DNA from: Escherichia coli
GTDB lineage: Bacteria > Pseudomonadota > Gammaproteobacteria > Enterobacterales > Enterobacteriaceae
Strand: one strand, 5' to 3'
Length of the DNA: 19,728 nt
Assembly (NCBI RefSeq): GCF_003334255.1
Contig: NZ_QOWU01000070.1
Shown: piece after piece, positions 3,268-19,728 of the stretch
How positions within the stretch are numbered: the stretch's first letter is position 1
How the letters are laid out: every line of letters starts with the position of its first letter
Program-made: the position numbers and the translations under genes
Notes under the pieces: generated by a model
The model's database searches: none
The model's input: the letters and a program-made list of their open reading frames with translations, nothing else
What the model was told of the DNA's origin: nothing

Positions 3268-3600
3268 TCAGCGTCCCATTAAGTCTCTTCGCAGAGTGTT
3301 TGCAAGTTCTGTAATGGCAACGAGGACCTCTGCATACTCTTTATCTCCCGTGCGTTTTCCTTCCACAAACAGATGCTTCTGCAGGTGACCAAGACGCATC
3401 AACTCTTTCAAAAAATCTTCATCAATGCGGGCATTTATCTGTTTTCCCAGCACAGTTTTTCTTATCAGAGTTGAAACTGTCAGTCCGTTTTTTTCTGCCT
3501 TTTCTTTAACAATCTCAGCCTCTTCTGGTGAAAAACGAACAGCAATGAGGACATTCTTTTGCCGTTTCTCACTGCCATTTCGGTTTTTCTTCTCACTCAT
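3268..3600 (-). CDS. nikA: Relaxosome accessory protein NikA (ribbon-helix-helix oriT-binding), 110 aa
   Basis: 110-aa product starting MSEKKNRNGSEKRQ with SD AAGGAG 6 nt upstream of the ATG at 3598-3600; the longer 139-aa ORF in the track would overlap the oriT repeat. Small basic protein immediately upstream of the relaxase, the R64 nikA-nikB arrangement. Confidence 0.85.
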   Translation of the reverse strand: MSEKKNRNGSEKRQKNVLIAVRFSPEEAEIVKEKAEKNGLTVSTLIRKTVLGKQINARIDEDFLKELMRLGHLQKHLFVEGKRTGDKEYAEVLVAITELANTLRRDLMGR

Positions 3601-16166: not shown

Positions 16167-16424
16167 ATGGATGAAGAACGGGTGTTTTCACTCAGCTATG
16201 AACAACTGACCCGGTTTGCGGAACGACGCATCCGGGAATGCAATCTGGACAGCCAGGGCGCAATTTATCTCTGCGAGTCAGCCAAAGCCGGAGCCGTGCT
16301 GATCTTCTGGCATGAACTGGCCATAAATGGCTATGCCTCAATGAATGCCATAAAGAGACAGGAGCTCATTGACGCCGACTTTCAGCGCCTCAGAAAGCTC
16401 ATCTGGCCGGAGGATGACAGGTAA
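16167..16424 (+). CDS. Hypothetical protein, 85 aa, first gene of a two-gene operon
   Basis: ATG at 16167 with SD GGAGTG (the track begins at a GTG at 16158); stop overlaps the next start (TAATG). Confidence 0.6.
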   Translation: MDEERVFSLSYEQLTRFAERRIRECNLDSQGAIYLCESAKAGAVLIFWHELAINGYASMNAIKRQELIDADFQRLRKLIWPEDDR

Positions 16425-17014
16425 TGACCCAGAGCCGCCGACCGTCGCCACTGCAGCGGAGAGTGCTGATTGTGCTGGCTGCGCTTGATGAAAAACGGCC
16501 GGGCCCCGTGCTGACGCGGGACCTGGAACGGGTGCTGGAGCGAAGCGGGGAAGCCCCGGTCTACGGGCCAAACCTGCGCGCCTCCTGCCGTCGTCTGGAG
16601 GATGCCGGCTGGCTGCGTACCCTGCGCGCTCTAAACCTGCAGCTGGCAGTGGAGCTGACGGACGCCGGCCGGGCCGTGGCACAGCCTCTGCTGCTGGCAG
16701 AACAGGACCGCCTCCGGGAAGAACAGCGTGCGGCAGAAGTCGTCGTACTGCCGCTGGTCCCGGCAACAGGTCTGCCCGCAGACGGCACTTCTGCCACTGA
16801 TCTGGCGGTGGAGCTGAACGGCATGACGTATCAGGCCTGCCGTGGGGATTTTGTGGTGCGTCTCGACGGCAGCACCTGTCTGCAGTTATGGAATAAAGAA
16901 GGCAGAGTGGTACGCCGGGAGGGCGATCCACTGGAAGTGGCGCAGTGGCTGCAGGCCTGTCACGATGCAGGAATGGAGGTTCGTGTGCAGGTTAATGAAA
17001 GCACCAACCCGTAA
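16424..17014 (+). CDS. Hypothetical protein, 196 aa, conspicuously GC-rich relative to its neighbours, possible N-terminal HTH
   Basis: Codon third positions strongly G/C-biased in this frame (CTG, GCC, CGC), supporting plus-strand coding over the antisense ORF 16338-16931. N-terminal LQRRVLIVLAALDEKRPGPVLTRDLERVL resembles a DNA-binding helix pair. Confidence 0.6.
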   Translation: MTQSRRPSPLQRRVLIVLAALDEKRPGPVLTRDLERVLERSGEAPVYGPNLRASCRRLEDAGWLRTLRALNLQLAVELTDAGRAVAQPLLLAEQDRLREEQRAAEVVVLPLVPATGLPADGTSATDLAVELNGMTYQACRGDFVVRLDGSTCLQLWNKEGRVVRREGDPLEVAQWLQACHDAGMEVRVQVNESTNP

Positions 17015-17031
17015 AAACATGCCTGCACGGT

Positions 17032-17379
17032 TTACACATCATCCCATGGTGGCAGCCGGTTAACTTTCCTGCGCCACCAGTGGAGAGAGGCCATAAGCAG
17101 TCCGTACAAAAAACCATTCGTGATACTTATAATAATGGCCTCACCTGCTACCATTCCTGACGGCCCCCAGTAGATAAACCACATTGCACATCCCCAGGAA
17201 ATGCCCCATAAGCCCCCCGTCAGCACCGTGACCTGCCAGAACGGCATAAAGGGTAATGGCGGAAGCCGGATACCCAGCCGCCAGAGAATACGCAGAAGAG
17301 GAGGGGCATAATTGCTCCGCCACATCTTTTTGCTGTCCATCAGGGCAATGGCCCGTGCTTTTTTCTGCTCAAAGGTCAC
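17032..17379 (-). CDS. Small hydrophobic membrane protein, 115 aa
   Basis: GTG start with SD GGAGG 7 nt upstream; at least two hydrophobic, Trp/Gly-rich segments (VTVLTGGLWGISWGCAMWFIYWGPSGMVAGEAIIISITNGFLYGLLMASL). Confidence 0.6.
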   Translation of the reverse strand: MTFEQKKARAIALMDSKKMWRSNYAPPLLRILWRLGIRLPPLPFMPFWQVTVLTGGLWGISWGCAMWFIYWGPSGMVAGEAIIISITNGFLYGLLMASLHWWRRKVNRLPPWDDV

Positions 17380-17497: not shown

Positions 17498-17845
17498 ATG
17501 AAACTGGATATATCTGTAAAGTATTTACTGAAGAGCCTGATACCAAGCCTCATTATTCTTACAGTTTTTTATCTGGGATGGAAAGATAACCAGGAAAATG
17601 CAAGAATGTTTTATGCGTTCATCGGATGCATTATCAGTGCCATTACTTTTCCTTTTTCAATGAGGATAATACAGAAAATGGTAATAAGGTTTACAGGGAA
17701 AGAATTCTGGCAAAAAGACTTCTTTACAAATCCAGTTGGCGGAAGCTTAACTGCTATATTTGAATTATTCTGTTTCGTTATATCAGTTCCTGTGGTTGCC
17801 ATTTACTTAATTTTTATATTCTGCAAAGCCCTTTCAGGAAAATGA
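17498..17845 (+). CDS. Colicin immunity protein of the small E1/Ia/Ib type, 115 aa (likely colicin Ib-type)
   Basis: Strong SD AAAGGAG; small hydrophobic protein with three predicted membrane segments; convergent with and 18 bp from the end of a colicin pore-domain ORF, the classical pore-former colicin-immunity arrangement. Confidence 0.65.
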   Translation: MKLDISVKYLLKSLIPSLIILTVFYLGWKDNQENARMFYAFIGCIISAITFPFSMRIIQKMVIRFTGKEFWQKDFFTNPVGGSLTAIFELFCFVISVPVVAIYLIFIFCKALSGK

Positions 17846-17862
17846 AAGGGCATCATTATGTG

Positions 17863-18375
17863 TCAGATACCAATAAGTTTATTGACCTGCTCAATAAACT
17901 TATCATTAACAAGCGCACTCACAGCAGCCATAATAATTGCAAAACCCAGAATACCTACAGGGGTTCCCAGCATGACGGAAAACGTCCATGCTGTAACTGC
18001 TGAAGCAGCTCTTCCTGCTGCCAGTGATTCAAGTTTTACAAAAAATGGACGCCAGTTGTCCGTTTTTACAGCCTTTTGTAACTCCACAGCAACATCATAA
18101 CGATCAATAACTTTTCCGGTAAAACCAAATGCCTTACTGAACAGCTTAAAATTCTCCGCCATATGGACCTGATTAATAGCTTCCAGGGCTTTAGAAATGG
18201 CCATGCGATCTTGTATGCTATATTTCTTGTTCAGATTATTACGGAATTTATCAAAAGCGTTCAGTGCATCATCCACACTCTTAATTTGTTTCCCTTGAGA
18301 TACAGAAGCCAGCTCCTTAGAAAGTTCGGATGCTTGTTTACCCGAGTAGGCAGCCTGGCGGCTGCGGCTTGTCAT
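17863..18375 (-). pseudogene. Pore-forming colicin, C-terminal channel domain only (170 aa); N-terminal translocation and receptor domains absent
   Basis: TDNWRPFFVKLESLAAGRAASAVTAWTFSVMLGTPVGILGFAIIMAAVSALVNDKFIEQVNKLIGI matches the hydrophobic helical hairpin and C-terminal LIGI ending of channel-forming colicins as I recall them. An in-frame TAA three codons upstream of the first ATG shows the rest of the gene is missing. Confidence 0.7.
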
Positions 18376-18430
18376 GGCCTGGAATTACCGTTATAAAAAA
18401 AGATAATGTCATTGTCTTTCAGGTAGTTAT

Positions 18431-18796
18431 ATGGCCCGTTCAGCTAAACCCCGTAAACGCAAACCCGCACCACAAAGAAGCAAACTTCCCCGCTATGTTG
18501 TGAAACTTCATCCGGATGATTTTTTTGACGAAGAAGACGCTGAAGTTCTGCGCTTTGATAATTTTGACGATGCCGTTGAGTGCTGCGCTGACCTGGGTAT
18601 TCCGTTCTTTCTGGATGCAGGAAACAAAAAGCTGGTCTTCTGGTTTGTTCGTGTCGATGACGAAGGGTATCCGGAAATAGCCCGCTGTACGGAGCGGGAG
18701 TTTGCAACCATTCTTGCCGGTATCAGTGCCGGTGGTATGTACTGCCCGGAATGCGGCACAGTTCACTGGCCGGATGGCGTTACCCCACCCGTCTGA
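18431..18796 (+). CDS. Hypothetical protein, 121 aa, basic N-terminus and C-terminal CPECG motif
   Basis: ORF ending 6 bp before the inferred IS3-family terminal repeat; N-terminal KPRKRKPAPQRSK; possible zinc-ribbon-like CPECGTVHW. Confidence 0.55.
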   Translation: MARSAKPRKRKPAPQRSKLPRYVVKLHPDDFFDEEDAEVLRFDNFDDAVECCADLGIPFFLDAGNKKLVFWFVRVDDEGYPEIARCTEREFATILAGISAGGMYCPECGTVHWPDGVTPPV

Positions 18797-18802
18797 TGCT
18801 TC

Positions 18803-19728
<926 letters not shown>

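Follow-up and report, generated by a model that had tools for sequence, protein, structure and literature searches.

An open reading frame (ORF) of 121 codons lies near the right end of the 19,728-nucleotide stretch of Escherichia coli DNA analysed here (the window), between the remnant of a colicin gene and the end of an IS3-family element. What is this gene, and what did the insertion beside it do? The original prediction, made from the sequence alone, called the protein unrecognised and proposed that the insertion had altered its 3' region or removed a partner gene. IS91 transposes by a rolling circle, with a transposase of the HUH/Y2 type and ssDNA hairpins at its ends. In this study, we identify the ORF as orf121, an accessory gene of IS91, left orphaned in a dead copy of that element, a reading to which we assign a probability of about 96%. 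The locus comprises the following features (window coordinates):

17498-17845, + strand: colicin Ia-type immunity gene, intact, outside IS91 ('colicin E1 family microcin immunity protein', WP_016232722.1)
17863-18342, - strand: 3' remnant of the colicin Ia gene (cia), pore-forming domain, about 159 codons plus stop; cia homology ends at 18342
18343-18802, + strand: left (terIS-proximal) 460 bp of IS91, with terIS, Porf121, orf121 and the beginning (7 nt) of tnpA
18343-18346, + strand: CGAG, at which the element begins; on the other strand 5'-CTCG, the tetranucleotide cleaved at terIS
18350-18365, + strand: terIS subterminal palindrome GCAGCC-tggc-GGCTGC (repeat search; 6-nt arms, 100% complementary)
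18392-18397, + strand: TATAAA, -10 box of Porf121, read from the sequence and matching the published box
18431-18796, + strand: orf121 of IS91, intact, 121 aa, ATG start, product WP_000124098.1
18714-18719, + strand: TTGCCG, -35 box of the weak internal PtnpA, within orf121, matching the published box
18796-18802, + strand: ATGCTTC, start of tnpA (7 nt), its ATG sharing one base with the orf121 TGA
18799-18802, no strand: CTTC, left copy of the target duplication made by the IS3-family element, the right copy being outside the window (filled site in L002 against empty site in L001)
18803-19651, - strand: right-hand 849 bp of a 1258-bp IS3-family element, orfB/integrase-core part, terminus TGTAGTGGTCAAG..., cut off at 19651
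19652-19728, - strand: terminus of IS1203 (IS3 family), TGAACCGCCCCGGG..., and 3' end of its transposase gene; corresponds to L002 11644-11720

The basic N-terminus and the CPECG motif of the original prediction are present in the protein, as KPRKRKP at residues 6-12 and CPECG at residues 105-109. That the protein is unrecognised holds for the profile databases: RefSeq names WP_000124098.1 'hypothetical protein', a Pfam scan gave nothing significant (zinc-ribbon matches only, E = 0.04-0.1) and an NCBIfam search matched no family. It does not hold for the literature, which describes the protein as Orf121 of IS91 (PMC13181058). Orf121 was first sequenced in 1992 (X17114; Mendiola et al. 1992) and its function was published in 2026 (Fauconnier et al., PMC13181058). 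According to the latter report, IS91 carries a 121-aa ORF upstream of tnpA with a TGATG stop/start overlap, and Porf121 lies in the terIS region; replacing its -10 box TATAAA by CGCGAA lowered activity 18.1-fold. A weak promoter, PtnpA, lies inside orf121 and has the -35 box TTGCCG, which was mutated to TGGCGG. At terIS, for which an 89-bp segment was used experimentally, the cleavage site 5'-CTCG stands beside a single subterminal palindrome, and the targets of the element are 5'-CTTG or 5'-GTTC. Residues V49, L55, V61, L68 and V75 and the motif C105-X2-C108 were named for the protein (all PMC13181058).

The window agrees with this description of Orf121 in the length of 121 aa, the position between terIS and tnpA, the TGATG overlap, the promoter boxes and C105-X2-C108. 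The ORF starts 88 bp inside IS91, counted from the terIS end at 18343, and the junction with tnpA reads gtcTGATGctt (18791-18801), with TGATG at 18794-18798 and the tnpA ATG at 18796-18798. Six of the seven published residues match (V49, L55, L68, V75, C105 and C108). The window copy differs from the published Orf121 in having L61 in place of V61 and in being orphaned, with neither tnpA nor oriIS in the window. Judged indirectly, from the named residues and from the identities given below, the window protein is an isoform of the published Orf121. The left boundary of the element is equally sharp. In an alignment of four independent IS91 copies conservation starts exactly at CGAG and the flanks diverge immediately 5' of it, and in plasmid pECOED (NC_011754.1, locus L001) the stretch aligned by IS91 copies from unrelated plasmids, hundreds in number, runs from 5944, which is window position 18343, to about 7763. 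A pattern search found terIS once in the window. A generic sigma-70 and terminator scan of 18300-18830 made no calls, though the experimentally defined -10 box is present. At another locus (L003, NZ_CP122830.1, about 3334-3342) two different IS91 isoforms stand head to tail; the first contributes its oriIS and the second its terIS to a direct contact (...cctatcgat/cgagtagg) with no target tetranucleotide between them, a junction which is that of the circular transposition intermediate known from the literature.

A sequence search found 230 homologues of Orf121, and database names among them include 'IS91, orf2'. The commonest homologue clusters share about 95-96% protein identity with the window copy, and the region is 96% identical in nucleotides to an element named IS91 by PGAP. 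On an unrelated IncFIA/IncX1 ETEC plasmid, WP_000124098.1 itself overlaps by 1 nt the downstream WP_116794643.1, 'IS91-like element IS91 family transposase', and a 94%-identical variant (WP_000091308.1) accompanies an 'IS91 family transposase' in an IncX plasmid. A homologue of 64% identity occurs in three copies in one genome, each followed by Zn_Tnp_IS91 and Y2_Tnp genes. Even the most distant homologue found (33% identity, on a 1834-bp contig) has a 1-nt overlap with a 393-aa Zn_Tnp_IS91 plus Y2_Tnp gene. Down to this level the proteins keep a length of 118-121 aa and the stop/start overlap stays at 1 nt. The overlap is kept in all five other copies compared, as TGATG in four and TAATG in one; by locus, TGATG is found in L001, L003, L004, L006 and L010 and TAATG in L009. 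Within the protein, every family member keeps the basic N-terminal arm, C52 and H112, and all but the most distant one keep C86, C105 and C108. Nei-Gojobori comparison of the window orf121 with divergent copies gave dN/dS values of 0.07-0.25. With these values and 230 homologues orf121 is not a chance frame; it is a real, selected gene belonging to IS91-type elements. An antisense ORF of 124 aa (18440-18814) was considered as a gene and rejected, as selection acts on the + frame. The homologues show a complete gene of ordinary function, the outcome that the original prediction had itself named as its refutation.

In an intact IS91, orf121 is transcribed from Porf121 and translationally coupled to tnpA via the one-base TGATG overlap. 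According to PMC13181058, its product is a dual regulator which strongly lowers TnpA-mediated transposition and sharpens cleavage at terIS. In that work, transposition was down 20.7-fold uninduced and 8045-fold induced with orf121 and tnpA in their native arrangement, and 8.6-fold when orf121 was supplied in trans from an independent promoter. Orf121 lowered tnpA mRNA, TnpA protein and the insertion of bottom-strand ssDNA circles. It also improved the accuracy of terIS (5'-CTCG) cleavage and so reduced one-ended transposition, from about 53% to 18-29%; cleavage remained at CTCG and target choice was the same. His-tagged Orf121 was analysed by western blot and mass spectrometry, and the authors' models have Orf121 either interact directly with TnpA or compete for the IS ends (PMC13181058). 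In earlier work, insertions into orf121 did not significantly change how often the element transposed (Mendiola 1992, as cited in PMC13181058), so the account of function depends mainly on a single recent publication.

Three other explanations were weighed against this reading. The ORF might be a plasmid-backbone gene with no mobile element of its own, beside which the IS3-family element merely happened to land, as the original prediction implied, and its name 'hypothetical protein' in RefSeq together with the fruitless Pfam and NCBIfam searches would suit such a gene. Against this, the ORF is accompanied by IS91 ends and transposase in many unrelated settings, plasmid as well as chromosomal, and the conserved block starts 88 bp upstream of it, at the terIS terminus; this comparison refutes a backbone gene, which we regard as extremely improbable. 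Just as hard to credit is a spurious ORF, that is, a non-coding IS91 leader upstream of tnpA which is open by chance. The early transposon insertions in orf121, without significant transposition effect (Mendiola 1992, as reported in PMC13181058), and the overlapping antisense ORF, which shows a second open frame in the region, speak for it. The low dN/dS in the orf121 frame, the length and overlap conserved to 33% identity, the analysis of the tagged protein by western blot and mass spectrometry and the effects in trans (PMC13181058) all speak against it, and the selection signature together with the published data on the protein refutes it.

The remaining explanation accepts the gene and places its action elsewhere: orf121 would chiefly be a coupling leader at the level of RNA or translation, with a protein that binds neither the IS ends nor TnpA. 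The TGATG overlap raises expression of a tnpA reporter while expression of orf121 lowers tnpA mRNA, and the authors themselves raise mRNA-mRNA and protein-mRNA models (PMC13181058). Across the family, moreover, nothing is better conserved than the stop/start overlap. A mere leader, on the other hand, has no need of the strong purifying selection seen on the amino acids, and Orf121 given in trans still cut transposition 8.6-fold and lowered one-ended transposition (PMC13181058). We therefore hold this mechanism to be unlikely and retain orf121 as the gene of a regulatory protein of IS91.

The effect of the IS3-family element was read from a filled/empty-site comparison between pECOED, which is empty, and NZ_CP060058.1 (locus L002), which is filled. 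This comparison proved the IS3-family end to lie 6 bp past the stop of the 121-aa ORF. The TGA lies at 18794-18796, the next six bases are tgcttc (18797-18802), and the terminus TGTAGTGG... begins at 18803. The empty site of pECOED reads gtcTGATGCTTCcccgtt; it matches the window up to 18802 and differs from there on. At the same point NZ_CP060058.1 has a 1258-bp TG...CA element with CTTC on both sides, and this complete copy (L002 7404-8661) ends ...CCACTACA. Termini of the form TGTAGTGG...CCACTACA, a length of 1258 bp and the CTTC duplication mark the element at 18803 as a member of the IS3 family, and PGAP names it 'IS3 family transposase, programmed frameshift'. In pECOED the sequence past orf121 without the IS is gtcTGATGCTTCCCCGTTTTGCC. 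The ORF opened there by the overlapping ATG begins MLPRFADIFQQGNRW...CKSRSCPHCG and scores 239.7 bits against NCBIfam NF033538 transpos_IS91 (cutoff 125). The element left orf121 untouched, because the overlapping ATG opens the IS91 transposase ORF and the element sits inside tnpA, its insertion point being after nucleotide 7 (codon 3). Comparison with this IS-free plasmid hence shows the 3' end of orf121 unaltered and followed by the IS91 tnpA, and WP_000124098.1 is encoded identically in plasmids without the IS3-family element. An altered 3' region, as proposed in the original prediction, is contradicted by these data. The loss of a partner gene, its other proposal, proved correct: the element inserted into the coupled tnpA, and a later deletion apparently removed the remainder.

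In place of an intact Y2/HUH tnpA, the IS91 copy of the window holds 7 nt of the gene. The tnpA of this lineage is frameshifted near L001 7310 in both pECOED and NZ_CP060058.1, with the C-terminal piece in another frame, and IS91 of this lineage was probably already immobile in plasmids free of the IS3-family element. The split falls at ...HVAPYG / VRYYGFLS, about L001 7300-7320 and in the same region of L002. The window is colinear with L002 until 19651 (L002 8252) and resumes at L002 11644, where the overlapping feature (19652-19728) is annotated 'IS3-like element IS1203 family transposase'. Relative to NZ_CP060058.1 the gap amounts to 3391 bp (L002 8253-11643). This deletion of about 3.4 kb apparently took with it what was left of the IS3-family element, along with all of tnpA, oriIS, mcbF' and mcbG. 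The junction at 19651/19652 looks like an IS1203-mediated adjacent deletion, read from one junction because the window ends 77 bp later.

On its other side the IS91 copy abuts cia. Homology to the intact cia of many IncI/K plasmids stops at 18342. Beyond this breakpoint the intact gene reads GAAC (L014 1343-1347), which is GTTC on the other strand; IS91 therefore entered cia by canonical targeting. The claim of the original prediction that the region upstream replaced the 5' part of the colicin gene is roughly right, in so far as the terIS end of IS91 was inserted at GTTC in cia. As to the mechanism of the loss, replacement has to be reworded: IS91 inserted, and its flank on the oriIS side was then probably exchanged. 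The oriIS end is absent from the window. In pECOED it ends, as ...cctatcgat, at L001 7763 and is followed by CAAG (= CTTG) inside mcbF; in both pECOED and NZ_CP060058.1, CAAG leads into the 3' portion of mcbF, after which comes mcbG, both genes belonging to the microcin B17 operon. The flank of IS91 next to terIS belongs to a GTTC target in cia, whereas that next to oriIS in the related plasmids belongs to a CTTG target in mcbF; such a mismatch implies a flank exchange. It was probably a recombination between two IS91 copies, or else an equivalent IS91-associated rearrangement, and would have removed the 5' part of cia. One-ended transposition as the cause of the cia-terIS contact is not favoured, as a breakpoint exactly 5' of GAAC fits canonical insertion. 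No other sequence of the mcb operon was found in the window.

The cia remnant is annotated as part of a 170-aa 'colicin-like pore-forming protein' (17863-18375, - strand). This ORF is a chimera: terIS sequence (18343-18375) supplies its ATG and first 11 codons, and the colicin Ia C-terminal pore domain all that follows. The remnant colicin should be inactive because its translocation and receptor domains are missing. Further left, 16338-17014 is strikingly G+C-rich with long ORFs on both strands (196 aa on +, 197 aa on -), a composition unlike that of the neighbouring colicin and immunity genes; the + ORF is 'hypothetical protein' WP_012605140.1, and a DUF6404 gene adjoins (17032-17379, - strand). 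Another IS91-like element, at locus L007 (GCA_014118665.1, JACFYS010000013.1, 996-3357), encodes an Orf121 homologue of 64% identity and likewise has a colicin gene (PF01024, 475 aa) close to its terIS side, on the opposite strand. Either chance or a repeated link between IS91-type elements and colicin loci could account for this.

Taken in order, the history of the locus began with IS91 inserting at a GTTC target in cia. The oriIS-side flank was then probably exchanged with that of an IS91 in mcbF, with loss of the 5' part of cia, before the 1258-bp IS3-family element entered codon 3 of tnpA and duplicated CTTC. An IS1203-adjacent deletion finally took, apparently, the remaining IS3-family element, tnpA and oriIS. 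The end state is a relic of terIS, Porf121 and intact orf121 with no transposase in cis to regulate.

OrfA (IS3 family) and InsA (IS1) are HTH proteins which bind the terminal inverted repeats of DDE elements. Like Orf121, they are small proteins that down-regulate transposition, and their genes precede the transposase gene and overlap it, a parallel drawn in PMC13181058. A relationship of either to Orf121 in sequence or fold was not found, and coupling in IS91 works through a stop/start overlap instead of programmed frameshifting. In a PDB profile search with Orf121 the only match was the TFIIB zinc ribbon, a weak likeness over residues 86-111 with C-x18-C-x2-C spacing that is not significant (E = 0.26). 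Unlike the TFIIB ribbon, Orf121 conserves three cysteines and one histidine only, and the cysteines are missing in the most distant homologue; the likeness is a lead, not membership. The basic N-terminal arm and the Cys/His cluster (C86, C105, C108, H112) suggest that it may bind nucleic acid and/or TnpA, and the case for a zinc site is weak because the model has a pLDDT of 61 and the most distant homologue is without C86, C105 and C108. This AlphaFold2 model, from a 16-sequence alignment, is of low confidence (mean pLDDT 61.2, pTM 0.43), and a Foldseek search of the PDB with it gave nothing usable (best E = 4). An exhaustive phmmer search of 1.84 billion representatives returned 80 matches, nearly all fragments or close relatives, and no distant superfamily. 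Since neither a detectable sequence relative among these representatives nor a fold match in the PDB emerged, Orf121 may represent a new fold of regulators for HUH/Y2 rolling-circle transposases. The 18431-18793 product also matches PHROG phrog_25574 (unknown function) over its full length (E = 3e-82). That family contains the same protein, and orf121 copies presumably reached the phage-protein collection through IS91 insertions in phage or phage-plasmid genomes.

As a discovery the identification matters little and is not new: publications already cover orf121, the way it overlaps tnpA and its part in regulation. It does expose an annotation gap: RefSeq, Pfam and NCBIfam leave a widespread protein 'hypothetical', with thousands of member sequences in Enterobacterales, so that unaided readers will keep flagging it. 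The locus is a worked example of layered IS activity, by which two bacteriocin operons were reduced to remnants, cia with its immunity gene and, in relatives, mcbF'-mcbG. The orphan orf121 may still be expressed and able to act in trans. It is conceivable, albeit rather improbable, that the orphan terIS-Porf121-orf121 unit, intact and free of pressure from any transposase in cis, is kept on this IncK2/Z-type plasmid lineage because Orf121 is still produced from it and serves as a trans repressor of incoming or resident IS91. If true, this would constitute a plasmid-borne transposition immunity, which would also limit the one-ended mobilisation of host DNA.
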